Shown here piece after piece: positions 7,627-64,000 of a DNA stretch of 64,000 nt. Numbering within the stretch: the stretch's first letter is position 1; the number at the start of each line of letters is the position of its first letter. The notes under the pieces were generated by a model. It was not told where the DNA came from and did not search any database. It saw nothing but the letters and a program-made list of their open reading frames with translations. Where the stretch lies: positions 1,984,001 to 2,048,000 of the forward strand of contig OY970223.1 of NCBI GenBank assembly GCA_963714015.1, read 5' to 3'. This stretch comes from Vulcanimicrobiota bacterium (GTDB taxonomy: Bacteria; Vulcanimicrobiota; Vulcanimicrobiia; Vulcanimicrobiales; Vulcanimicrobiaceae). The translations under genes were made by a program, and so were the position numbers.

Positions 7627-9104
7627 GATGGATCAAGTTTACGCCGGAGCGTTTGCGCCGACATGGAGTTTTGATTAAAATGCTGCTCTGCGTGCACGTG
7701 CCGGCATTCCGTTTGGCCGTGGCGCGGCGCGAACGCCCCGACGTTCCTGCAGACGAACCCGCGGTGCTCGCCGACAAAGCCGATCGCGGCCGCGTGATCG
7801 AACTCGATCCGCGCGCCCGGGCGCTTGGCGCGCGTATCGGGCAGACGGTACTGCAGGCGCGGGCCGCGTCGGGCGGGGTGCACGTGCTGGTGCACGATGC
7901 CGGACGTTCCCAGCGCGTGTGGAGCGATATGCTCGACGCGCTCGACGCGGTCTCACCCTTAATCGACGACAGCGGCGAGGGAACGGCGTATCTCGAAATG
8001 CGCGGCGCCTCCGGCGATGCAAACGTCTGGAAGAGCGGTGTGCAGTGCGCCCTGGAGCGTTTCGATCTGCCGGTGCGCACGGCGACCGGATCCAACAAGT
8101 TCCTGGCGCGCGCGCTCACGTACGCACCGGACGGCTGCATCGAACGTTTGCCGATCGACATCCTGCAGATAGAGCCGCGCATCGTCGAACGGTTGCGCTT
8201 GCTGGGCGTGCGCACGCTGGAAGATCTGGCGAAGCTGCCGCACGGACCGTTCGTCCGGCGTTTCGGCAAGGCCGCAGCAGAGTGGCACGAACGAGCGCGC
8301 GGCATCGATCCCACGCCGCTTCGTCCGCGCGCCCACGAACTGCAGATCGATGCGGCCGTCTTTGGTGAAGGGACCGCCGAACAAGAGGAGCAGGTGTACT
8401 TCGCAGTGCGCGTGCTGGCCGAGCGCATCTGCGCCGATCTGACCCGCGCAGGTAAGGCTGCAAGTTTGGTTCGCCTGACGTTCGAATGTGAAAACGGCGA
8501 CGTACGCGAGATCGACACCGGTTTTGCGCAGGCGACGGCCGATCCGCGCATGATGCTCGACGTCATGCGCGCGAAGCTGGAAGGCGCCGCGTTCGATGCA
8601 CCGATCACCGGTTTGCGCATGCAGGCGATGCGGCTCGAAGAGGGCGGCGCGCCGGCGGCACTCTTCGGGCAAAACGAGGTCGACCGCCAAGCCTTGGCGG
8701 TTGCGCTCGCGCGATTGCACGCCGCAACGGGAAGTGTGCCGCTGCGCCCTCACGTGCGCGCAGCAGCGAATTTCGAAGAGCGCTTCCGGTACGAGGGTTT
8801 CGATCCGTCGTTCGATCGGCTCTGCCCTTCGAGGCCGGTCGCCATGACCGGGGGGGCGAAAAACGTGGTGCCGCAACTGCGGCTTCTGACGGTACGAGAA
8901 GTTGCCGTGACGATGCGCGGCAACGCTCCGGAAAAAGTCGGCACTCGCGCAGTGCTCGACTGCGCGGGACCCTGGCGCGTCGACGACGGCTGGTTCGAGT
9001 CGCCGGTCGTGCGCGACGAGTTCGACGTGCTGCTCGACGACGGAATGCTTTGCCGCATCTATCGTCAAGGAGAGCATTGGTATCTGCGAGGTGCATATGA
9101 TTGA
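7623..9104 (+). CDS. imuB: ImuB, catalytically inactive Y-family polymerase (true start may be ATG near 7680)
   Basis: Y-family fold features (LRLLGVRTLEDLA, RRFG) and the C-terminal GPWRVDDGW..RDEFDV..LRGAYD motif typical of ImuB. Confidence 0.88.
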   Translation: MRWIKFTPERLRRHGVLIKMLLCVHVPAFRLAVARRERPDVPADEPAVLADKADRGRVIELDPRARALGARIGQTVLQARAASGGVHVLVHDAGRSQRVWSDMLDALDAVSPLIDDSGEGTAYLEMRGASGDANVWKSGVQCALERFDLPVRTATGSNKFLARALTYAPDGCIERLPIDILQIEPRIVERLRLLGVRTLEDLAKLPHGPFVRRFGKAAAEWHERARGIDPTPLRPRAHELQIDAAVFGEGTAEQEEQVYFAVRVLAERICADLTRAGKAASLVRLTFECENGDVREIDTGFAQATADPRMMLDVMRAKLEGAAFDAPITGLRMQAMRLEEGGAPAALFGQNEVDRQALAVALARLHAATGSVPLRPHVRAAANFEERFRYEGFDPSFDRLCPSRPVAMTGGAKNVVPQLRLLTVREVAVTMRGNAPEKVGTRAVLDCAGPWRVDDGWFESPVVRDEFDVLLDDGMLCRIYRQGEHWYLRGAYD

Positions 9105-20143: not shown

Positions 20144-22478
20144 GTTAGCCGACGCCCGGACCCTCGAGACGCTGGACTTTGCGGGCGTCCGCGATCGCGT
20201 TGTTGCGAACACGCGCACCGAGCGCGGGCGCCGTCTTGCGGAAGACTTGGTTCCGTTCGTCGACTTCGAACGCGTGCGGCGCGAGCAAACGGCTACGGCG
20301 CACGTTCGCGACCTCATCGCTTCGGCCGATATGCACGTGCTCCCGGCCATCGACACGGCTGAACTAACGCAGCGCGCGGGCGCCGGAACGGCGCTCGGGT
20401 CGAGCGAGATCCGTGCTGTGGGCGAAGCTATCGCTGCCGCCGCGGCAGCGTACAATAAGACGCGCGAACAGCCGAGCGAGGTGCTGGACGCAATCACCGC
20501 CGCGTATCGTCCGCTCAAAGACGTCCAGAATGAGATATTCGAGGCAATCGACGAGCGCGGAACGGTTTTGGAGCGTGCGTCGCCGGCGCTTGGGCGTATC
20601 CGCAAGAATCTGCAGCACGCGCAGGCGGAAGCGCGCGATCGGGTCGGCTCACTGCTGCGCAGCGCCAAGTATTCGAAAGCGATTCAAGACTCGGTCGTGA
20701 CGATTCGCGAGGGACGCTTCGTCGTGCCGATCAAGGCGGAGTTCAGCGGCGAAGTGCCCGGCATCGTGCACGACACCAGTTCGAGCGGTCAAACGCTCTT
20801 CGTGGAGCCGCTCGCCGCGCTCGAGGCAAATAACCGCGTGCGAACGCTGCGTTTGGAAGAAGAACGCGAGATCGCGCGGATACTGGCGCAGCTTTCGCGC
20901 CTCATCGGATCGTCGGCGGGGCAGATCGAAGCGAACGTCGAGATGCTCGCGCAGCTCGACCTGCTCGTCGCCAAGGCGCAACTCGCTGCGGCGATGGACG
21001 CGCGCCAACCGGAACACGTCCAGACCTCGACGCTATGCATCACCAATGGCCGCCATCCGCTGCTGGGCGACCGTGCCGTACCGCAGTCGCTGGAGATCGA
21101 CGAGCAGACGCGGCTTATCGTGATCAGCGGTCCGAATATGGGCGGCAAGACCGTCGCGCTCAAAATGGTCGGGCTCTTCGTCTGCATGACGTACTGCGGC
21201 TTGCAGATTCCGGCCACTCAGGGGAGCCGCATCGGACACTTCACGCGGATCTTTACGGACATCGGCGACGAACAATCGATCGCCGAGAACACGTCGACGT
21301 TCTCAGCTCATCTGCGGCGGATGCGGGAGATCATTTCGCAGGCCGGTGAACGATCGCTCGTGCTGGTCGACGAGATTGGGGGCGGCACGGAGCCGACCAG
21401 CGGCGCAGCGCTCGCGATAGCCATGCTCGAGCGGCTGAGTCGAGTGCGGGCCGGCGGCATCGTAACGACGCACGCGACCGAATTGAAACTCTTCGCGCAT
21501 CAGACGCCGGGCGTCGCGAACGCCAGCGTGCGTTTCGATCCGAACACGTTCGCGCCGACGTATCACTTGGACGTCGGCATGCCCGGGCAATCGCTGGCCT
21601 TTCCGCTAGCGCGTGCCTTGGGGATTCCGGGCGAGATCATCGAGCGCGCCGACGCGCTGCTGGGATCGCGCGAACGCGATTATGAGAGCGCGCTTGCGGA
21701 GCTTTCATCGCTGAGCGCGCAGCTTCAGGCTGAGCGCGACGGGGTCCAGCGCGAACGGCAGCACGTCGATCGCTTGCAAGAGAACCTGCGTTCGCGCACC
21801 GAGGCGCTGGAACGCGAACGCCGCGACTTCTCCGACAAAGCTGAGGCGCGTATGCAAGAGGCGCTGCGGGAATTCAGCGCAGAGCTCGCGCGCCGCGCCG
21901 CCGAGAACCAAGCCGCGCGACCGAAAGTGACGACCGCTCAAAGTGCGCTGCTGCAGCGAACGATCGAAGATATGCGCCGCGATTTGGGCGTCAAACCCGA
22001 AGCGCCGAAGACGGCAGACTCCGGAAGATTCGAATCCGGCGATTGGGTGCGCGTGCTTTCTTTCGGACAGGAGGGCAGCGTAATTGCCGACAACGGGGAC
22101 TCGCTGCTAATCGCGATCGGCCCCATGCGAACCGTCGTGGGAAAGAGCGACGTGCAGCGCGCGGGCTCGGGTGAGAAAGTGCGCCGCGGCAGCACCGGCG
22201 GCGGCGGCGCGGCGAAGATGGAGGCCGCCGCACGCACGATGAGCGAGCTCGACGTACGCGGCAAACGCTACATCGAAGCGGAGCCTTTGGTCGATCAATG
22301 GATCGACGAAGCCGTCCTTGCCGGCAACTCGCCGCTGCGCCTAATCCACGGCAAAGGCACCGGTATGCTGGGGCGCGGTCTTCAAGAGTTTCTGCGAAAT
22401 CATTCCAGCGTAAAAAACGTCCGCTACGGTGACGAAAACGAGGGCGGCGGCGGCGTGACGATCTTCGACCTGCGTTAA
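20136..22478 (+). CDS. mutS2: MutS2 family endonuclease/ATPase with Smr domain
   Basis: HDTSSSGQTLFVEP, Walker A GPNMGGKT, DIGDEQSI..STFSAH, C-terminal LDVRG..IHGKGTG. Confidence 0.96.
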   Translation: MAELADARTLETLDFAGVRDRVVANTRTERGRRLAEDLVPFVDFERVRREQTATAHVRDLIASADMHVLPAIDTAELTQRAGAGTALGSSEIRAVGEAIAAAAAAYNKTREQPSEVLDAITAAYRPLKDVQNEIFEAIDERGTVLERASPALGRIRKNLQHAQAEARDRVGSLLRSAKYSKAIQDSVVTIREGRFVVPIKAEFSGEVPGIVHDTSSSGQTLFVEPLAALEANNRVRTLRLEEEREIARILAQLSRLIGSSAGQIEANVEMLAQLDLLVAKAQLAAAMDARQPEHVQTSTLCITNGRHPLLGDRAVPQSLEIDEQTRLIVISGPNMGGKTVALKMVGLFVCMTYCGLQIPATQGSRIGHFTRIFTDIGDEQSIAENTSTFSAHLRRMREIISQAGERSLVLVDEIGGGTEPTSGAALAIAMLERLSRVRAGGIVTTHATELKLFAHQTPGVANASVRFDPNTFAPTYHLDVGMPGQSLAFPLARALGIPGEIIERADALLGSRERDYESALAELSSLSAQLQAERDGVQRERQHVDRLQENLRSRTEALERERRDFSDKAEARMQEALREFSAELARRAAENQAARPKVTTAQSALLQRTIEDMRRDLGVKPEAPKTADSGRFESGDWVRVLSFGQEGSVIADNGDSLLIAIGPMRTVVGKSDVQRAGSGEKVRRGSTGGGGAAKMEAAARTMSELDVRGKRYIEAEPLVDQWIDEAVLAGNSPLRLIHGKGTGMLGRGLQEFLRNHSSVKNVRYGDENEGGGGVTIFDLR

Positions 22479-22502
22479 ACGAGGGCGTCCCGGCCGCGCT
22501 CG

Positions 22503-25248
22503 CTACAGCCGGTATCGCAGCCTAAGCTGAATGCTGCGCCCCATCGGGTAACTCTGCGGCACGTAGCCGGCGCGTCCGTACGTCCACGGAACGGACTGCG
22601 TGCGTCCGTTGTTCGTGGGCACGCCGTTTCCGAGCGTATACGGGACGGAATATCCTCCGGCCGCTTCGTATGCGGCGGCGTAGAATGGATTACCGCCCGC
22701 ATATCCCGGCGGTCCGATCAAGTACGGGTTGCCTTGTAGCGAGGTAGGTGCAAAATTTCCGAGCAGATTCACGACGTCCAAGATCGCAGTCAATTTGGAC
22801 GTCACTTCCTGCTCGGCATGGACGTTAACGTACGTTTCCGGAGCGGCATAAAGCGTGTCGGGCGTCGAACCTTCGTGCGTTCCCAGCGAACCGATATACG
22901 GGTTCCTCAGCGAATCGTACGGCTGCGACGGATTACGAAGGAAGTAATAATTATAGCCGGGATCGACGTAGTTGTCGTTGGGGACCTGCTGCGGTTGGTG
23001 CGTCGCCGGATTGAAGATCCAGACCGCTGTGCCGTTTCCGTAAGGATACCCCGACTCGAAGGATAGCGAAGGTATGACCCGCAGCCGGCGGTTGCGCGAG
23101 TCGAATTCGCGCGAAAGATTCGCCGAAAACTTCGGGAGATAACTCACTGGGAAGAGCTGCCCGGCAGCAGCGGCCGCCGCGTTGAGACCGTTGTAGGCGA
23201 ACTGCGAGGCGCTCGACGAGTACGCCCGGACGTAATTTGCATCGACCGTCAATCCGCCATGGCTCAACCAAAGCTCGAAGCCTCGCGCGCGAAGGTCGCC
23301 GATGTTCGTGGGAACGCCGACGCCGCCCGGGGCAAGTCCGGATTGCAGCGCCGATCGAAAGTTGTACGGCAGCACGTCGATAAGGTTGGCCTCGTTGACG
23401 TTGTAGAGTGTCGCTCGAAATTCAAAAGGCGCCGCTCCCTCGAGGGAATAAGTGACGTCGTTCGCCGTTTGCGGCGCGAGTTGCACGAACGGCGCGGGCC
23501 TTCCATTAGGCACGTTGCCCGAATCGACACGATCTGCCTCGAGCGGCAATGGAGCGACGGTAATGCGATCGTAGCTCGCGCGAAACGCGATGCTGCCGAG
23601 GCGATAGACGCCCGAAAGATGCGGATCGAGTGCGCCGGCGTCGTAAATCGACCCGGAGCTCGGAACGACGTGCGTGTCGGTATAACGGGCGGTTGCCATG
23701 AGGTCGATCCGCGGCGTTGCGTGCCACGTGTCGCCGAAGTAGCCGAGATACGAAATCAGCGTAGGATTGGATGTTACGAATTCGCCGGCGGTCGGCACGA
23801 CCTGGTTGAGGAAAGAAGTGTTCGTGCGGTACTCGGCGCCGAATCGCAGATCGTCGTTTGCCGTAAGGTCCTCACCGTCGTAGCCTAGTCCCGCTTCACG
23901 ACTGCCTTGCGCCTGCGAGAGCGATATCGAGCCGTCGGGCCAGCCGTTCTCGTCCCAAAATGGACCGCCGGCTCGCGAGCCGTATTGCGACTGGTAAATC
24001 TGCACGCGCGAAAGCGAGTGGGGAGCGGAGTGAAGCCATTGCGCTTTCAAAATGTCATACGAACCGCGAACGCCCGACGCGAAAGCGACAGGCGCGTTTG
24101 CATTGACTTCACCCGGATACGTCGTGGAGCGACCGTCGAACTCTCCAATCGTCTCGCCGGCGTACGGCGAGCCGTACTGCTGATACGCAGCCTGACCGGC
24201 CAGGCCGAGGACGGAGACGTCGTCTTGACGGTCGACTCGAAAATGAACGTTGGATTCAAGCGAATACTCGCCGCGATTCTGCAGCGCCAGACCATACGTT
24301 GCAGCCTCGGAAGGATAGAACGTGCGTCCGTCCCCGTAGTCGAAGTACTGGCCGGCGGCCGTGGCGGCGAACGCGTAACGCCAGCGCAGATCCGGCGTAG
24401 CGCCCAAGATTTGCAGCGAGTTCCGTTGGAACTGCCCGCCACCTAGTCCCACTCCCGATTCGAGCGTTGCGCTCCCGGGATACGTGCCGGCAGCCGGAAT
24501 TTCGTCGATGACGCCGCCAAGCGCATTGTCACCCTGCGTCGTGTATCCCGCGAGCGTCGCCGTCGTAGAAGCAACCCCCGTCGTCGGGAGCTGCGCTCCA
24601 ACGATATTGCCGCCGGGCTCTGCGATGAGTCCTTGAGGAATCGGCACGGAGTCGTAGTCGAAGATCGCATCCGCGACCTTACCGCCGCGCAGAATTGCGT
24701 TTGCGAACTGATCCAAAACGACCCCCGGCACCGATGCAATCGCGCCCTGCACGGTTCCGGCGATGTAGCCCGAAAGTCCGGAGGACGATACCGGAGGAGA
24801 GATTGCGCGAGCCCCAGCTCCACTGACGGTGAAAGCGTCTGCGGCGTTTCCGATCGTAAAGGCCTTATTCGTCGCGCGAATGTTTGCGATCGTATGGATT
24901 TGACGAACCAGACGAAACACCAAGTACAGTGATTGTCCGGGCAGAACCGCCACGCCGCTTTGCATTGCGGCTTGGTATCCGTTCGCTTCTACGGAAACCG
25001 CGTAGTCATCCGGAGTTACGCCCAGGATGTTGAAGCGTCCATGGGCGTCTGAGGTCGCAGTATAGACACCGGAAGGGGACGACACCCTGATGCGTGCATT
25101 GGCGACCGGTAACCCGTCGCCGCTCACGCTGCCGACGATCGTCCCGGTCGTCGCTTCAGCCGCTTCGACCGATGCCGCAGCAAGAGTCTGCGATAAGAAC
25201 GACGAGGAGGAGCGCGAAGCTCATTCGCGCCGAAGATGGAAGCTTCAT
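22503..25248 (-). CDS. TonB-dependent receptor-like outer-membrane protein with N-terminal carboxypeptidase-regulatory-like domain (+1 frame break near 25190, in the signal peptide)
   Basis: Signal peptide, GTIVGSV..P.ANARI..SPSG..T.SD..GRF.I.G domain, plug-like region (LRGG..YD..GG.I), amphipathic strands, C-terminal SIQLRLRYRL. Confidence 0.8.
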
Positions 25249-25299
25249 GAACGGTCCTAGAGAACGCGCAGGGCGTCCGGACGCTGAGTGAGGAGATAT

Positions 25300-25955
25300 T
25301 TAAGGAAGCGTCGGGAGAAGCGGAGGTGCGCGTTCACCTAGCTGGTGAACGTGAATAGCGCTACGGCGAAATGAGGCCGGCTCGGCATAATGACCGGCCA
25401 AAATCGGACTGTTTTCATGAGAGAAAGCATCGGACAAGTATTGCAGTGAAGTCGAACGAGCGTAGCGCACCGCTTGACGATCGAGCGCATCGCGCGCGCG
25501 AGCAGAATCGTACAAACCATTCCTAAAGCCGCATGCGCGGGAACGCTGAACCAGACGGGACCGCCAAGCCATACTCCGCCCCCAAGAAGCGTGCCGCCGG
25601 AGAGCAGTTGTTCAGTGCTTTCCATCGCGTAAAGCGCGGCGAACTGCAGCACGAGAACGTACGGCAGGTCTTGCAGCGGCGATCGTGCGCAGACAAGCGC
25701 CGCCGTTTCAACCAGCCGGTCTTTGTGCCGGCCCGGCCCGCGAAGAAGCTGGAGGCAATGCCTGCAAATCAGCAGGAGCGCCAGCACTGCGCCTGCGAGG
25801 AGGGTCGGGATCACGCTCAAGTGATCGTTATCGGCATATCCTCGCGCAATGAGGCCGCTGTTGGAGACCGTTTCGACCAAAGGGTCACCGAGCGCCGCGG
25901 CAATGAGCGCAACGGCGATAAGGAACGGTAGTCGGGTCCCGGCATCTCTATGCAT
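25300..25955 (-). CDS. Polytopic membrane protein with C-terminal RAPP motif (frame break near 25450); candidate regulatory uORF
   Basis: About 4 TMs in frame 25338..26012. The overlapping frame ends HVHQLGERAPPLLPTLP-stop, 51 nt upstream of the receptor start. Confidence 0.65.
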
Positions 25956-26025
25956 CGTCTGCGTCACGGCTCGTAATCGGCAATTGTCGTCCCGCGGGGT
26001 ACCTGCCTGCATGCTTTGCAGGGTC

Positions 26026-26442
26026 CTAGCGTGGTCTACCTGTTTTCGGTATACGACCGGCTAAGGCTTGCGGCGTCGCGGACTTCGCAGGTTTCACTCC
26101 GCCGCAGTTCGGGCAGCGGCGGGACGGCGAGCGATCCAGACGCGCGGCAAAGCGGTAACCTTTCTTGGCAACAGTCACGACGTATGAATGGCTTGCGACG
26201 CCATCTCCCAGCGCGCGGCGTAACGCAAAGATATGCTGTCTGAGGGTTCCGTCGGTCACCGATTCGTCAGGCCACAACCGTTGGAAGAAAACGTGCCGCT
26301 CGACGACCGCGCAGTCGGCCTCCAGCAACAGCCGCAGAATTTGGAAAGTTTTTTCACTGAGCTGTTTGACGGACGTGCCGTGCGTGAGAAGCCGCCGGGA
26401 AAGATCGAGCCGGTACGGCCCAAATCGATACATCTCAACCAT
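26026..26442 (-). CDS. Stand-alone OmpR/CadC-type winged-helix DNA-binding protein with C-terminal CxxC
   Basis: YRFGPYRLD..LW...V.D.TL.QHI..LRRAL..VVTVAKKGYRF, followed by RRCPNCGG. Confidence 0.85.
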   Translation of the reverse strand: MVEMYRFGPYRLDLSRRLLTHGTSVKQLSEKTFQILRLLLEADCAVVERHVFFQRLWPDESVTDGTLRQHIFALRRALGDGVASHSYVVTVAKKGYRFAARLDRSPSRRCPNCGGVKPAKSATPQALAGRIPKTGRPR

Positions 26443-26449
26443 CACGCAT

Positions 26450-27182
26450 TCAATGCATGATTGGTGCCGGCGATCCGTCGGACCAGTGAGAGACTGGGAC
26501 GAAAAAGAGCGTCCACGGCTCGGGATTGACACGATGACCGTTATCGAAGATCACGGGAGAACCGGGCTCGTCGGCTCCCCAACTCGCACCGTCGTTTGCC
26601 GTATCCGCCTTAGGCGAATAGAACATGACGTGCGGCATCCACGCCTTGGCGGCGTCGGTGAGGTGCTGGTCTTTGGACATCATGTAGGCCATGGAGCCGG
26701 GTGCCGCTGCCGGAAGTTCTTTGGCCGCGACGGCAGCCTTGATGCGATCGTAGATTGCCGATTCCGAAAGGCCCGCCAGAACCATGCCCGTGCGTTTCAA
26801 CGTGTAAGGAAGAACCGTGCGGGAAGCCTCAGGGTTGTAGCAAACCGGCGCGCGCATCTTCCAATCCCAAAACTCGGAGTCTGTCGAACGGGTTCATCCA
26901 CGAACGCTCCACCAAGCACGTGAAGCCGTTGCTGCCCGTCTGGACAACGCGGTATCCGCTCGAGGTTAGGACCAGAACCGTCGCGTGGAGCGAAATCGAG
27001 GACGGCGCCGCGCTTCGGGCAAGGGCGATCTCCGCTCGACTTTGCGGCGTTAGATACTGCGCTAGCGGTGCCATCCGCGGATAGAGGGTGTCTTTGGCCT
27101 CGCCCTGAGCGCACGCGGCCGCCACGGCGAGCGATACAGCGGCAATAGCCGCGGCCGCATGAAATCCCGCTCGAGTCATCAT
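26450..27182 (-). CDS. Secreted hypothetical protein (+1 frame break near 26880)
   Basis: Signal peptide, EIALARSAAP, GSNGFTCLVERSW, then APVCYN, GSMAYMMSK, PHVMFY; SD GGAGG. Confidence 0.75.
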
Positions 27183-27265
27183 AAGTGCCTCCGTTCGGGT
27201 TGTTTTAGTACAACGTACTTGCTAAAAACAAGGCAACGGACCGGTTTGTGACCGGCGCGTCCGCG

Positions 27266-27345
27266 TTTGACAAAATTTGACGGGCTCGAGCCGTCACCGG
27301 CGGCCGGTTCGCTTCGTTTACCATGCGGCCCTTGCAAATTGCAAG
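27266..27345. promoter_or_regulatory. Divergent control region with direct repeat and palindrome
   Basis: TTTGAC-aaaa-TTTGAC (27266-27281, 10-bp period); CTTGCAA-a-TTGCAAG (27331-27345). Confidence 0.5.
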
Positions 27346-27375
27346 TTCGGTAGCACTTTTAGATGGAGAGCCGGC

Positions 27376-27684
27376 GTGACGCACGTGAGGCAAATCGTAT
27401 TCGGTGACTTCGTGCTCGACGTGTCCGGACGAATGCTGCGGCATCGTTCGACGCCGGTTTTGCTTCGTCCCAAGGAGTTCGAGCTGTTGCTGCTGCTCGC
27501 GCTCTCCCGCGGTGCGGCCGTCAGCAAGGAGGCAATCATCGACGTGGTTTGGCATAGCGCGGACGTAAGCGACTCCGCAATTACGCAGAGCATCTACCGG
27601 CTGCGTCAAACGCTGAGCCGTCACGACCCGAATACCAATCATATCGCCACCATTCCCGGTCGCGGTTACCGATTCGCGTCATGA
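27376..27684 (+). CDS. Stand-alone OmpR/CadC-type winged-helix DNA-binding protein
   Basis: FGDFVLD..LRPKEFELL..VSKEAII..VW..SDSAITQSIYRLRQTL..IATIPGRGYRF, ending right after the DNA-binding domain. Confidence 0.88.
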   Translation: MTHVRQIVFGDFVLDVSGRMLRHRSTPVLLRPKEFELLLLLALSRGAAVSKEAIIDVVWHSADVSDSAITQSIYRLRQTLSRHDPNTNHIATIPGRGYRFAS

Positions 27685-28413
27685 AAATCGACGAGCGCGC
27701 CCCGGAAGCGCGCCTGCGTGAGGTACTCGGCGACGTCGATTTGAGCAACGCGCGCCCGATCAAAATTACGCGGAATACCGGATTGTTGTGCGCCGGTTCA
27801 AACTTCCTTGGTGCGGCTAAAATTCTGCCGGACATACGATGGTCGCACAGCATCAGCGTCACGCTTGCGTCCTCTCCACAGTCCGATCTTATCGCGGTTC
27901 TGCGCACTAAAGCGTTGGATGCCGATCAGCGGCGCATCTTCGATCGCCCGACGATCCCTGCGGACGGTTTGGCGGCGCTGTTGCGGCTTGCGGCAAACTG
28001 CGCGAGCGACGAGCGGTTTGAGTCGATCATCTTTGAAGCGTTCCAACTAGCCTCGCGCCGTTCGATGGATCACGCCGCGGCGAAGCCGTTCACTGCGTAT
28101 GCAGCGTCTCAAGCGTTTCATCGAACAGGAGTGCCACCGCGATCTGACCTTGGAACGCATGGCGTGCGTAACCGGCCTATCGACGTTTGCTTGTCTGCGG
28201 CAGTTCAAAGAAGCGACCGGGGCGACGCCGCATGCCTATCTCCTGCAATGCCGGATTCAAAAGGCACTGGGGCTGCTGTGCGTTCATGGCGCGAGCGTTG
28301 GTGCCGTCGCAATTGCCGCCGGCTTTACCGATCAAGCACACTTTGCTCGGATGTTCAAGAGATCGACGGGGATGACGCCGATGCAATACCGCGCTGCAAA
28401 CGCGCTTGGATAA
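27681..28413 (+). CDS. AraC family transcriptional regulator (+1 frame break near 28095)
   Basis: C-terminal LTLERMA..LRQFKEATGATPHAYL..AIAAGFTDQAHFARMFKRSTGMTPMQYR; ATGA overlap with the upstream gene. Confidence 0.85.
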
Positions 28414-28590
28414 AATTGCCCACTTTGGCTTTGGAAAGCCCGTAAAGCGTGTGGATGTTAGGACTTTGCCGCCGTTTTTCCGTCACAGTGATTTCACCGG
28501 ACTACGGCCGCGGTAAACTCAGGCGTCGGAAACAAGGAAACAACGCCACCGGCTGCAGCGCGTCGCCCGGCAACGATAGGAGTAACAACT

Positions 28591-31500
28591 ATGCAGTCAA
28601 CCCTTAGCCGTGCGCGGCGACGGGCGGTTGCGGCATGCTCGGCGATTTTGCTTACGCTGAGTTTGTTCTCGACAACCCTCGCGCCCGCAATCGCGGCAGG
28701 CGGCGTGCAAGGAAACTTGACCGGGTCGGTAGTCGACACGAGTACGCAAGCACCCCTTGCCGACGTTCACGTAGCCGCCCAGTCGCCCTCGGGCAGCTTT
28801 TCAGCCAATCACGGACGCCGGCGGCCACTTCACGATGCTTGGTCTTCCGGCGGACACGTATACCGTGTCCTTCACCAGATCCGGGTACGATTCCATCTCC
28901 CAACCCGGCGTGGCGGTGTTCGGCGACGAAACAAACAGCGTCGGGAACGATTCGAATGAGCAAATCGCTCAAGACCATCGTTCACGTCAACGCACGGGCG
29001 CGCAACGGCGCGTTCCAGCCGACGCAAACGCAAGACGTCACCACGATCAGCGGCCAGCGCATCACGCAGGCGCTGGGCAATGCCACTTCGCGAAACGAGC
29101 AAAACCTTATCCTTGCTGCCCCGGGCGCAATGTTGGATTCGCAGGGCAACATCACGGTTCGCGGCTCGCTCAACGTCGAATTGGGCTATCAGTACGACGG
29201 CGTGAACTTCACGATTCCGTTCTTCGACGGCAACGGCGGCGGCGGTGCAAAACGGCACCGGCGGCTACCTGAACAACCTCGCGGGCGGTTCGGGCGGCTC
29301 GCTGCAAGTCGTCTCCGGTTCCGGCGACGCGACCCAGGGCAACATCGGCGCCGGCGTGATCAACATCGTTCCGCCGCGCGGAACCTACCCTGCGTCGGGA
29401 ATGTTCAACACGGAAGTCGATTCGCCGTACTACGGTCACAAATTCGACGTGAACTACGCATGGGCCACGCCGAACAACCGGCATCAGCGACTACTTCTCG
29501 TACGACGGCTCGCGTGACGTTCCGGAGTACGCGCCGTTCGGCATCGACGCGGCGACGATCGGCGAGTACAATGGACCTACTGCATCAGCCGAATAGACCA
29601 CGACGACCTTCAGAACAACTTCGTGTTTCGCTTCGGCCACAACAACAATATGTCCGCTGCAGTGGCTGATGCGTGTCTCGAACCAAAGCGAGTTCGGCAA
29701 CTACGGCGGTTTAGGGCAGGCATCGTACTACCCGTACAATCCCATCGCAAGTGCGCCGTGGAGCCAAACCTATCCAGGCGTAGTCGATCAAAACGGCAAT
29801 GTCATTGAAACACCCGCCCAGGAGTACGCAGCGACGGTGGGGTTGCTTCCCGGCAGTCCCGTCAACGGACGTTCTCCCCACGACGCCGAGCAGCTGTTCG
29901 CGACGCCGCTCACGTTCAACAAAATCGGTTACACGTGGAATATCAATCCCACGACATTCCTGAACCTGAACTGGGCGAATTTCTACAACCAGACGACCCA
30001 GCATTTCAATACCGCCGCGGAATACCAGATGACTGAGGAACAGGTCGGAGGTCAGCGCGTCTTCGGCGAAATGGATCTCACGCATCAATTCGGTGCGAAC
30101 CACACGACGACGCTCGCCGTTCGCTACCAAGACGACCTTCCGCGTTGGAACAATCAGTCGCCATGGTTTGCATCCGACACGCTGGGATATACCGGCGCCG
30201 CCGTCAATCAGGGCAGCCTCGCCAACGGCGGCGCTGCATATCTGCCGGATATTTCCGACTGGTATCTCCCGCCCAACACCACCGCGCCGGTAAGCGCGGC
30301 CAACCCATGCCCCAATTACCCCGGCAGTTCGACTGCGGGATCGTGCTACATCTACAGTTACATGATGGCGCACGGTCTATGGAACGGTATCGGTTCGCTG
30401 CCGCGGATTCCGAACGCAAGGACTCGACTACCACCATGCAATCTTCCACGAGTCGGGCATCGGTCTTCGCGATCAGTGGACTGTCAATTCGCGTCTGCAC
30501 CTGGATTACGGTCTTCGTCTAGACGCCGACAATTTGGACTGGGGACAGAACCCTTACAACTTCACGTCGGAAGCGCTCTCGAATCCGTCGGACGTGGATC
30601 CGTCGACGAAACTCGGGAATGACTTCCTGCGTCCGCGCGATTGGCAGCCGCGTTTGGCGGCGTCGTACCAACTCGGCGCGGACGACGCCCTGCGTTTTTC
30701 GTACGGGCGCTCCGTGAACTTCTTCTTTGCACAAACGGCCGGTACACCGTTTAACCTCTCGAACGTTCCGTCGTTCATGTTCCAAATGCCCGCGAAGGAT
30801 TCGACCGCGCAACCCGGATGCGGCAGCGGCTGGAATTCGTCACTGCCGGGCGGTCCGGCGTATAACGGTCCGGGCAATTTTTACAAGTGCCCGAACTACG
30901 CGGATTCCCTGTACTGGCTCGGCGATCAGAACTTCGATGCACCCGACCTGGGCGGTTACGGTCCGCCGACGTACAATAACTGGGATCTCCAGTGGTCGCA
31001 TCAGTTCGTAGGGGGACCGGTTAACGGCTTCGGGATGAAGCTTACGGCCTTCGATCGCCGCGGCTACAACGTGGAAGAAAACACGCTGCTGGCCAACGGT
31101 CCGCCGAACCCGATCACCGGTCAAACGGCGGCGTCGGTCTTTGCGACCGAAGCGAACGGCGTCGAGAAGACGTCGGGTATCGAGTTCATGCTCACCGCGC
31201 CGGATCGTCCGACGGGCCTGAGCGGATTCCTGACGATGAACTACATCAGCGAGTTCTCGTCGACTCCACCGGTCGATGCCACGAACTATGCGAACGATCA
31301 GCTGCCGATCCTGTTCCAGGACGAATTCAGCACCGGGCAGCTCTATCGCAGCGCATTCTTGCCGCCGCTTCAAGGGCGCTTGGGGCTCTCGTTCAAGACC
31401 GCCGGCGGATGGAAGATCAATCCGATCTTCGCATTCGACGGAGGCTTCCCGACGGGGGTCGGTTCGCAAACTTATGGGGCAGTGAACGGTCAATATCTCT

Positions 31501-31985
31501 GGATTCCGGAGACGAATTTCGGTGCGGCGACGCCGCTTGGCGGTCCGCAAGGTCCGGGTAATCCGTACAACGCCTCGTACTTCGTCGATCCGGCAAATCC
31601 GGGGAACTATCTCTCGCCGAACATCGCCGCTTCACGCGGCTATCCGGAACCCGCGCTCCCCGGTAACGCGTTGACGAAGGCGCACGGAAGTCTGGATCTC
31701 GATCTCGAGTATTCACCGCCCAGCTCGCCCTGGACGATGGGCGCGTATATTTCGAACGTGTTCGACAACCACTACGGACTGTGGTATCCCAACCAGCAGT
31801 ACCAGCCTGTTGCAACCGGCGTGTCCGGTCCGCAAACGGGAACGTTCGCGAGCGCTTATCCAGGCACACCATTCTACCTCAACGGCGCTCGGGATAATTA
31901 TCTGGGAACGTATGCCAACGGTCCTTTCCAAGTGCCGTATAACGCAGGTACGACGTTCCAGTTCTATCTGCAGCGGAAAATCTAA
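28591..31985 (+). CDS. Large TonB-dependent receptor-like protein (about 7 frame breaks)
   Basis: SD AGGAG, signal peptide, carboxypeptidase-regulatory-like domain, plug (ITVRGS..YQYDGV..AGVINIV), barrel motifs (PRLAASYQL..LRFSYGRS), C-terminal FQFYLQRKI. Pieced together from ORFs 28591, 28835, 28635, 29245, 29623, 29669 and 30534. Confidence 0.82.
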
Positions 31986-63720: not shown

Positions 63721-64000
63721 ACGCCGCTCCCGAGATGCGCTTGACGGCGTACGCCGTCAAGGAATGTCAGCATGTCGCCGCCGCGAGGGCGGCGCCCTGG
63801 GAGGATGTCGCACGTCAGTCCCTTGGTCTCTTGAATATGGACGTTGGGATCCAACGTGATGTGCAGCAGGTCGTTGGCACTGTCGCCGGTGACCAATCCT
63901 TTGCGCCCGAAGTGATACGGCAATCCGACGCTGTGCAGCACGGTGCCGTTCGATCTGCTCGGCCGCACGCGGCTTGTAACCATTACGCGCGCCTCGATCA
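63717..64000 (-). CDS. Formate dehydrogenase alpha subunit, C-terminal fragment (runs off window)
   Basis: Molybdopterin dinucleotide-binding end VGLPYHFG..GDSANDL..DPNVHIQETK..C. Confidence 0.88.
   Translation of the reverse strand, partial: IEARVMVTSRVRPSRSNGTVLHSVGLPYHFGRKGLVTGDSANDLLHITLDPNVHIQETKGLTCDILPGRRPRGGDMLTFLDGVRRQAHLGSGV

Follow-up and report, generated by a model that had tools for sequence, protein, structure and literature searches.

In the SecM–secA, MifM–yidC2 and VemP–secDF2 systems, a stalled ribosome opens an RNA helix that sequesters the Shine–Dalgarno (SD) sequence. Among the closest described systems to the locus analyzed here is CruR of Bordetella pertussis, a DUF2946 protein whose RAPP arrest, which copper relieves, governs the TonB-dependent transporter gene bfrG by way of Rho (PMC9426467), the arrest having been demonstrated in vitro (PMC12992588). 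The cruR–bfrG spacer measures 162 bp, and the authors stress that CruR intergenic regions are generally long (PMC9426467). Here, we describe a two-gene cassette on the minus strand of a 64-kb window (the entire stretch of DNA analyzed, 64,000 nucleotides of contig OY970223.1, positions 1,984,001–2,048,000, from a Vulcanimicrobiota bacterium), in which a gene for a four-helix membrane protein ending in RAPP lies directly upstream of a gene for an outer-membrane protein (OMP) of the TonB-dependent receptor type. The evidence assembled below points, with reasonable though far from complete confidence, to a RAPP arrest-peptide sensor that controls the downstream transporter gene.

According to Fujiwara et al. 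2025, RAPP and RGPP are avoided in bacterial proteomes, yet small secretory and membrane proteins are enriched in them toward the C-terminus (PMC12992588). TonB-dependent receptors form one of the enriched classes of genes downstream of RAPP/RGPP upstream open reading frames (uORFs), and the uORFs of this class almost all carry a signal peptide rather than transmembrane (TM) segments (PMC12992588). The same report describes four-TM RAPP proteins of S. lividans that arrest both in vitro and in vivo, and arrest in 7/7 of the S. lividans proteins tested that have a C-terminal RAPP or RGPP (PMC12992588). RAPP uORFs preceding TonB receptors and four-TM RAPP arrest peptides are thus already known from that work. 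The first-pass annotation of the window had proposed an analogy to CruR and to RAPP leaders; our analysis supports this interpretation, which is less new than assumed given these reports (PMC12992588).

The family described here shares several features with CruR. In both, RAPP lies a few residues before the stop codon, the gene is directly upstream of and co-directional with a gene of the TonB-dependent receptor type, the spacing between the sensor motif and RAPP is tight (reported as 45 ± 2 residues in CruR, 75–81 here), and a region richer in C than in G is found near the end of the uORF. Unlike CruR, the new family has neither a DUF2946 match (0/34 members) nor a conserved CxxC (5/62), and it has four predicted TM helices, whereas CruR has a signal peptide or a single N-terminal TM segment. 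Its Glu, Asp and His residues are placed at the predicted periplasmic face, in contrast to the Cys residues by which CruR is proposed to sense cytoplasmic copper. The two also differ in that the spacer to the downstream gene is 23–79 nt here versus the 162 bp reported for cruR–bfrG, and in the anti-SD complementarity seen in many loci of the new family.

The proteins otherwise resemble the RAPP/RGPP class as Fujiwara et al. 2025 describe it: they are shorter than 300 amino acids, have TM segments as a localization signal and R-[AG]-P-P near the C-terminus, and are followed by a co-directional gene in 13/13 orthologous loci and in the window. The four-TM examples of that study are conserved in TM1, TM3, TM4 and the region after TM4 (PMC12992588), a likeness to the new family by description only; unlike the new family, they precede extracytoplasmic function (ECF) sigma factor, thioredoxin or copper genes in a Gram-positive host. 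As in SecM, MifM and VemP, the putative arrest site is found close to the C-terminal end of a protein that is exported or membrane-bound, and it reads G-x-R-A-P-P here versus GIRAGP at the SecM C-terminus (PMC12992588); unlike in those systems, the gene that follows belongs to neither the Sec nor the YidC machinery. Full-text searches on this type of arrest peptide returned only the two reports above and earlier papers of the group. We found no description of the membrane-protein family in the literature, the gene list of Fujiwara et al. 2025 being one place that may include members, and a literature search on Eremiobacterota and TonB-dependent systems returned nothing relevant.

The membrane protein gene and its RAPP tail

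The membrane-protein gene occupies positions 25300–25955 of the minus strand, as defined by the open reading frames (ORFs), an alignment of 32 homologues and an AlphaFold2 (AF2) model of the closest homologue, P0002. It starts at an ATG (25955–25953) that aligns with the homologue starts and corresponds to M20 of a 224-residue ORF, and ends at a TAA (25302–25300) with the C-terminus HVHQLGERAPPLLPTLP-stop. In the window, the gene is read in two frames: frame A is the hydrophobic 224-residue ORF (25338–26012), which overlaps frame B (25300–25572), whose C-terminus reads ...IHVHQLGERAPPLLPTLP-stop. The 656 nt of the gene plus one missing base give a repaired length of 218 residues, the same as that of P0002, with which it shares 76% identity. 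The putative arrest module IHVHQLGERAPP (25321–25356), defined by comparison with the family logo, ends with the RAPP codons CGC GCA CCT CCG (25332–25321). A pyrimidine-rich stretch (CTTCTCCCG..., 25300–25320) follows, consisting of six codons (LLPTLP) and the stop.

The motif recurs throughout the family. Among 32 close homologues found with the 224-residue ORF as the query, 31 carry R[AG]PP near the C-terminus (30 RAPP and one RGPP); the sole homologue without it, P0004, ends in ...AHHSVNARRRSSSRLSNLHRQ, which looks like a frameshift of its own. A genomic set of 13 loci from reference genomes (L001–L013), which together with the window gives 14 DNA sequences, has R[AG]PP in 13/13 cases, followed by 4–11 residues and a stop. 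A profile search of 1.84 billion representatives returned 375 matches at E ≤ 1e-3, of which 256 reach E ≤ 1e-10, the family size of 375 being counted in representatives at 50% identity. In the 148 of these listed beyond the first set, R[AG]PP is present in 140 (121 RAPP, 19 RGPP) and lies 1–12 residues from the C-terminal end in 137/140; the remaining eight comprise two RSPP, one RPPP and five that are truncated or have different ends. The homologues run continuously into the RAPP frame, and none shows the ending in the other frame that would have spoken against a family-wide motif. Judged from these counts, the occurrence of RAPP is far above chance.

Conservation extends to the surroundings of the motif. 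In the family logo, R and both P residues are each found in 125/125 members, G at position -2 in 87/125 and G or E at -1 in 110/125, with the consensus H-V-R-Q-I-G-[EG]-R-A-P-P. The spacing from WxGGP to RAPP is 75–81 residues in 125/125 members. At the DNA level, every RAPP codon varies synonymously among the 14 sequences (CGC/CGT/CGA/CGG/AGG for Arg, GCG/GCA/GCT for Ala, CCN for Pro) while the residues are fixed, which indicates selection on the peptide. Across the 148 distant representatives, the Arg is never replaced, and position 2 is A in 121, G in 19, S in two and P in one. Mutagenesis of ApdA and ApdP is reported to have found the Arg irreplaceable and position 2 fully tolerant of G and partly of S, P and D (PMC12992588), and the natural spectrum of the family, with its fixed R and its G, S and P variants, matches what would be compatible with this kind of arrest, as indirect evidence. 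A six-frame translation of the window contains one other R[AG]PP at most 15 codons from a stop where the open frame is 40 codons or longer, at 63787–63798 (minus strand, ...VRHPPRAPPSRRRHADIP-stop), probably in a non-coding frame.

Topology and conserved residues of the membrane domain

The membrane protein belongs to no named family. Pfam returned no family for it among the window ORFs, and none of 34 alignment members matched Pfam, DUF2946 included, even at E ≤ 10, a threshold at which the HMMER filters drop most matches above ~0.1. NCBIfam gave no family for three members, and 10/10 distant members that were looked up are labeled 'hypothetical protein' or have no product name. A search of the ESM Atlas returned only Pfam-less 'hypothetical protein' clusters, most commonly from Vulcanimicrobiota, Actinomycetota and Candidatus Dormiibacterota, a lead toward relatives in other phyla. 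A tblastn search of plasmids with P0002 found no match.

The AF2 model of P0002, computed from a 34-row alignment, has a predicted local distance difference test (pLDDT) score of 83 and a predicted template modeling (pTM) score of 0.72. Helices span residues 3–32, 48–72, 77–90, 93–120 and 134–193; the TM domain is confident, and the tail (res. 194–218) is disordered, with a pLDDT of ~50. The model thus describes four TM helices, a long helix predicted to be cytoplasmic and a disordered tail bearing RAPP, in agreement with the ~4-TM protein of the first-pass annotation. Foldseek found no match to this model in the PDB at E ≤ 0.001 (best E = 0.23). Lys and Arg counts place the N-terminus, the TM2–TM3 loop and the C-terminus on the cytoplasmic side, which by the positive-inside rule suggests an N-in/C-in topology.

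In 161 full-length members, the most conserved residues are E28 (100%), D42 (100%), E112 (99%), E115 (100%) and H141 (94%), together with P50, Q104 and W129-L-G-x-P133. Except for Q104, all map to the predicted periplasmic ends of TM1–TM4 or to the intervening loops, so that, by the positive-inside rule, the acidic and His residues (E28, D42, E112, E115 and H141) would form an invariant cluster at the periplasmic face. The codons of these polar residues lie within 25533–25874 of the minus strand (94–100% conservation, with the K/R distribution and the helices as further support), namely E28 at 25874–25872, D42 at 25832–25830, E112 at 25622–25620, E115 at 25613–25611, W129 at 25571–25569 and H141 at 25535–25533. 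The DNDH (D42–H45), the E..EQ (MESTEQ, with E112, E115 and Q116) and the His (H141) singled out in the first-pass annotation are all present in the window copy. The invariant E28, D42, E112, E115, W129 and H141 suggest that the protein may sense a ligand. A CxxC occurs in the window copy (C64-R-H-C67) and in some close relatives (5/62 anchorable members), ~140 residues before RAPP; Cys is absent from the conserved columns, in keeping with the earlier description of the protein as non-DUF2946.

The last TM helix ends at about residue 154, which would place it ~57 residues from the P-site if the ribosome stalled on Pro211. In the model, this distance would leave room for all four helices to be membrane-embedded while the chain is held at RAPP. 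From force-profile work, simple membrane insertion is an unlikely release signal at ~57 residues from the P-site.

A divergent TonB-receptor-like gene follows the RAPP gene

The downstream OMP gene (22503–25248, minus strand) encodes a signal peptide, a CarboxypepD_reg domain, a putative, divergent plug-like region and a putative TonB-receptor-like barrel, and is interrupted by a +1 frameshift. Its ATG (25248–25246) is separated from the stop of the membrane-protein gene by 51 nt (25249–25299). The placement of RAPP at 25321–25332, the distance of 51 nt between its stop and the receptor start, and the presence of the AGGA and CTCCT elements, all reported earlier, proved correct on the minus strand. 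An orthologue of this OMP is found directly downstream on the same strand in 13/13 loci, with 60–77% identity, bearing out the proposed location upstream of transporters. In these loci, the OMP starts 23–79 nt past the membrane-gene stop behind a strong SD (AGGAGC or GGAGG), and the other neighbors are not conserved. The two genes thus constitute a cassette that, in the genomes sampled, is conserved in Eremiobacterota (Vulcanimicrobiota) and a few other soil metagenome-assembled genomes (MAGs).

The receptor assignment relies on remote similarity. Pfam identifies only CarboxypepD_reg in the window OMP (E = 2.4e-13), with no match to the barrel family PF00593 at E ≤ 0.1. Across the set, CarboxypepD_reg is found in 14/14 OMP proteins, PF00593 above its gathering score in 9/13 orthologues and Plug (PF07715) in 0/14. 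A comparison by hhalign of the OMP orthologue profile with a classical CarboxypepD_reg–Plug–barrel receptor (L010, 1612–4905) gave 92.6% probability (E = 4.7e-7) in an alignment of 565 columns that includes the plug region. Against PDB sequences, the OMP profile found no TonB receptor, the only matches being those of cellulosomal scaffoldin to the N-terminal domain, and the AF2 model of the OMP is poor (pLDDT 41, pTM 0.34). The OMP consensus contains a stretch, L-x-T-I-A-[SN]-[VI]-x-A-T, that can be read as TonB-box-like on inspection only. 'TonB-dependent receptor' appears a reasonable label for what would be a divergent member.

RNA between the RAPP codons and the OMP start

The 51-nt spacer is C-rich and G-poor and contains a CTCCT (25295–25291), the palindrome GCGTCCGGACGC and the SD AGGA (25258–25255). 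We found no intrinsic terminator or promoter-like site in it, and a search of Rfam over 22000–28000 of the window returned no riboswitch or other family, with two sub-threshold chance matches. The region from RAPP to the OMP start has more C than G in 14/14 loci, with C/G ratios of 1.15–2.25 versus about 1.0 in gene bodies, and the bias is strongest in the window copy, whose 84 nt are 43% C and 19% G.

Several observations link the codons at and after RAPP to the SD of the OMP gene. CTCCT, read as CTC-CTN (Leu-Leu), occurs in 8/11 Leu-Leu pairs after RAPP versus 9/98 such pairs in gene bodies (Fisher p = 8e-6, a value inflated by relatedness). Compensatory-looking pairs are found in L009 (CTCCTTCA/TGAAGGAG), L012 (TTCCTCC/GGAGGAA) and L005 (CTGCTCCT/AGGAGCAG). 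In minimum free energy (MFE) folds, codons of RAPP or just after it are the pairing partner of the SD in 11/13 loci, and this region accounts for at least 88% of SD pairing in the ensemble in 10/13. Duplexes within a locus beat those formed across loci (permutation p = 0.02). When a ribosome is placed at RAPP, the opening energy of the ribosome-binding site (RBS) falls by at least 3 kcal/mol in 7/13 loci. The evidence for SD unmasking is mixed, with in silico support in about half of the loci and not in the window copy.

Two other structures were considered and set aside. A hairpin with the arms CGTTCACC/GGTGAACG and a 5-nt loop (25331–25351, minus strand) overlies the V-H-Q-L-G-E-R codons; reported earlier as 7 bp, it is real and in fact 8 bp long, and it is mostly a by-product of conserved codons. 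Perfect 7-bp hairpins number 66 in the 64-kb window versus about 32 in shuffles. At least 6/7 pairs are retained in 9/14 loci, and 4/7 of the scored pairs are fixed by V-[HR]-Q-x-G-[EG]-R codons. At the one informative position, where the second base of the His/Arg codon faces the third base of a Gly codon, 3/5 His cases are mismatched (A·C with GGC). The hairpin forms in some folds only, and half of its stem would be hidden beneath a ribosome stalled at RAPP. We reject it as a conserved RNA element, since it is mostly codon-forced, and treat it as incidental. The other structure appears when 25234–25356 (minus strand) is folded alone: a 14-bp long-range helix, CUAGG-U-GAACGCGCA/UGCGCGUUC-UCUAG (z = -3.2, 2/200 shuffles as good), that joins the L-G-E-R-A codons to the sequence just 5' of the SD and competes with the local hairpin. 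This helix was rejected as a regulatory element, being lost with longer context and not conserved in the other loci.

Frameshifts in the window copy

Both genes of the window cassette are frameshifted. In the membrane-protein gene, the junction is -1/+2, as described earlier, and falls within 25447–25454, with one base missing relative to the homologues. Frame A matches the homologues through ...KRCATLVR (last codon 25454–25452) and frame B from LQYLSDAF (25446–25444 onward), whereas the 32 homologues (193–254 residues) read through in one frame from the frame-A part into ...ALEFLLDAF...HVHQLGERAPPLL.. The tail of frame A beyond the junction (LHCNTCPMLSL...) has no counterpart in any of the 32. 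From this comparison, the junction is a lesion of the window copy, not a family trait.

The OMP gene carries a second frameshift, +1, which falls between 25158 and 25220 (minus strand), where the signal peptide is encoded. The ATG frame (MKLPSSARMSFALLLVVL/MKLPSSARMSFALLLVVLIADSCC...) encodes the signal peptide and runs to a stop at 25158–25156, and the main frame (...AAASVEAAEATTGTIVG/...FLSQTLAAASVEAAEATTG...) is the long ORF 22503–25127 in the +1 frame. The two must join at about 25180–25200, and the remaining 2.6 kb is one clean frame. The lesions of the two genes are at most ~270 nt apart, and neither sits in a long homopolymer. The public protein set contains an identical 224-residue truncated ORF (P0001). 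We dropped a plot of GC content at third codon positions (GC3) as a means of counting frameshifts across the window, as it was too noisy at 61% GC.

Other genes nearby also appear split. An AraC-type regulator (27681–28445, plus strand) has its HTH_18/HTH_AraC match in ORF 28099–28413, a frame other than that of the 254-residue ORF 27681–28445, which suggests one more +1 indel. A second large OMP-like gene (28591–31985, plus strand) begins with a signal peptide (MQSTLSRARRRAVAACSAILLTLSLF...) and is then spread across several frames, with tblastn matches of the orthologous OMPs in frames 2, 3 and 1 in turn (28781–29418); Pfam found no match in its pieces. The genes before it are the AraC-like gene and a winged-helix gene (27277–27684), and neither encodes a RAPP protein. 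Because these nearby genes are split as well, both frameshifts of the cassette are better read as assembly indels than as decay.

Genes around the cassette

A winged-helix (Trans_reg_C) gene, identified with Pfam and NCBIfam, lies 70 nt upstream of the membrane-protein gene (26026–26532, minus strand). It was ruled out as a part of the cassette, since tblastn found no match to it in 13/13 loci. Small stand-alone Trans_reg_C proteins of the OmpR/CadC type, without receiver domains, flank the region at 26026–26532 (minus) and 27277–27684 (plus). L003–L008 have convergent F420_oxidored, LacI and MOFRL genes in common. Classical TonB-dependent receptors with Plug and barrel domains in Pfam are found just upstream of the cassette in 5/13 loci, four divergent (L004 2084–4069, L006 2056–4320, L008 2068–4227 and L011 1701–4157, all minus) and one co-directional (L010 1612–4905, plus). 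In L010, a gene for a PCu(A)C copper chaperone (8576–9061, plus) lies on the same strand 113 nt past the OMP stop; nothing else hints at a substrate, which would here be copper, and the gene is seen in 1/13 loci.

Discussion

The position of the cassette's first gene upstream of the OMP gene, together with its RAPP tail, makes control of the transporter probable, and the membrane protein probably switches that gene on or off during its own synthesis. In the proposed mechanism, the tail would act as a RAPP-type ribosome arrest peptide. By analogy with the peptides described in PMC12992588, the ribosome would stall with the Pro1 codon (25326–25324) in the P-site and the Pro2 codon (25323–25321) in the A-site, when the finished four-helix domain would already be in the membrane. 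The state of that domain, whether ligand or metal occupancy, folding or packing, would set the speed of release, and the stalled ribosome, by covering the C-rich, CUCCU-bearing stretch after RAPP, would set expression of the OMP gene. In many orthologous loci, the stall would free an SD paired with post-RAPP codons; as in SecM, MifM and VemP, the folds suggest a helix opened by stalling, here in 7–11/13 loci. Alternatively or additionally, the stalled ribosome would shield the transcript from Rho, as in CruR, and the two outputs may coexist. A tentative, more specific version, which we regard as possible but not as the expected outcome, is that the tethered polytopic protein senses the substrate of the OMP, a metal or another cation, through its periplasm-facing Glu/Asp/His pocket, and that binding releases the arrest so that the transporter RBS is masked again.

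A number of observations weigh against this proposal. The motif and its conservation, the synteny, the topology model and the RNA complementarity are what the analysis shows, whereas the stall and the ligand, like the direction and route of the regulation and any effect on the OMP gene, are predictions. The 13 loci come from related MAGs, so their counts are not independent. Shuffle controls were passed (at most 3/100) in only 5/13 loci; the RBS does not open on stalling in 5/13 (L001, L003, L004, L010 and L011), its opening energy falls by only 1.4 kcal/mol in L013, and over the 14 sequences the effect is not significant (Wilcoxon p = 0.09). The window copy departs furthest. None of the other 13 sequences has as weak a duplex (-6.5 kcal/mol here, with 146/173 control windows as good), a fraction of 0.01 of its SD pairing goes to the RAPP region, and the opening energy of its RBS rises on stalling from 6.1 to 8.7 kcal/mol. 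CTCCT and AGGA, which the first-pass annotation had thought able to pair, are both present in the window, but they pair in no MFE or centroid fold, and no SD masking is seen in this copy. The 23–29 nt spacers in L006–L008 would also permit plain termination–reinitiation coupling, and a strongly conserved membrane domain in a protein of 218 residues suggests a job of its own beyond that of a leader. With both genes frameshifted, the window cassette as assembled would be inactive unless the frameshifts are assembly errors.

Two alternatives concern what the stall does, if it occurs. One changes the output step only: the stalled ribosome would block the loading or movement of Rho, and release would lead to Rho-dependent termination before the OMP gene. 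We consider this improbable as the sole output, though it deserves real weight and could coexist with SD unmasking. The C excess between RAPP and the OMP start in 14/14 loci, most extreme in the window, would suit it, as would the missing SD masking in the window copy, the absence of an intrinsic terminator from the spacer and the CruR precedent (PMC9426467). The 23–79 nt spacers, in contrast, are short next to the 162 bp reported for cruR–bfrG, the C excess is in part simply Pro, Leu, Ala and Thr codons, and the CTCCT enrichment is better explained by anti-SD pairing. The other alternative, to which we assign a small chance, is that the tail does not regulate the OMP gene and is instead a folding or assembly pause or a docking motif, the two genes adjoining as partners, for example as the inner and outer parts of one uptake route. 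A large conserved membrane domain with invariant E28, D42, E112, E115, W129 and H141 would suit a transporter or receptor that has a role of its own, and SD masking is absent in 5/13 loci and the window. A tail without a regulatory role is harder to reconcile with a motif that lies 1–12 residues from the stop in 137/140 distant members, in a disordered tail, and with the anti-SD-like CTCCT enriched just after it. It also sits poorly with the reported avoidance of RAPP/RGPP in proteomes except at the C-termini of small secretory and membrane proteins, and with the arrest of 7/7 S. lividans proteins having such C-termini (PMC12992588).

The remaining alternatives concern the state of the window copy. 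That it is a decaying pseudo-operon, in which the frameshifts, the weak SD (AGGA) and the absent anti-SD pairing are all real mutations, has a substantial, minority claim. Two frameshifts within about 270 nt, neither in a long homopolymer, would be expected of it; every RNA test sets the window copy apart from the other loci, and the same truncated ORF recurs in the public set as P0001. Set against decay are the other 2.6 kb of the OMP gene, which form one open frame with 60–77% identity to the orthologues, and the intact RAPP frame, with a motif that is 100% conserved; the splits in the AraC-like gene and in the second OMP-like gene (28.6–32 kb, three frames) point instead to assembly indel errors. 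Programmed recoding, in which ribosomal frameshifting would link the TM domain to the RAPP tail under certain conditions, is scarcely credible. Its sole point is the overlap of the two frames in the window copy, whereas a single continuous frame is found in 31/32 close homologues (P0004 having no RAPP tail) and 13/13 loci, and recoding is very unlikely because the junction at 25447–25454 has no slippery heptamer. For annotation, the consequence would be that the public 224-residue ORF is a frameshift artefact or a pseudogene, with RAPP as the proper end of the gene.

Returning to the arrest-sensor interpretation, RAPP arrest peptides have only recently been extended beyond secretion genes, and CruR is the only worked case of metal control of a TonB transporter in these reports. 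By its sequence features, the protein family described here is a new, polytopic variant of this recently established type of regulator, with an acidic/His pocket predicted to be periplasmic and a short spacer with anti-SD complementarity, an RNA layout more suggestive of SD unmasking than of control by Rho. It adds a distinct group, 375 representatives in size, from a barely studied soil phylum. If the proposal is correct, it would show how a membrane protein still being made passes a signal from outside the cytoplasm to the ribosome that makes it. In the tentative version with a substrate-sensing pocket, the protein would be a one-protein sensor of the periplasm that needs neither a kinase nor DNA binding, unlike the cytoplasmic reading of copper proposed for CruR. 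The proposal would also help to find out what is imported by the CarboxypepD_reg-type receptors that abound in Eremiobacterota and Acidobacteriota.

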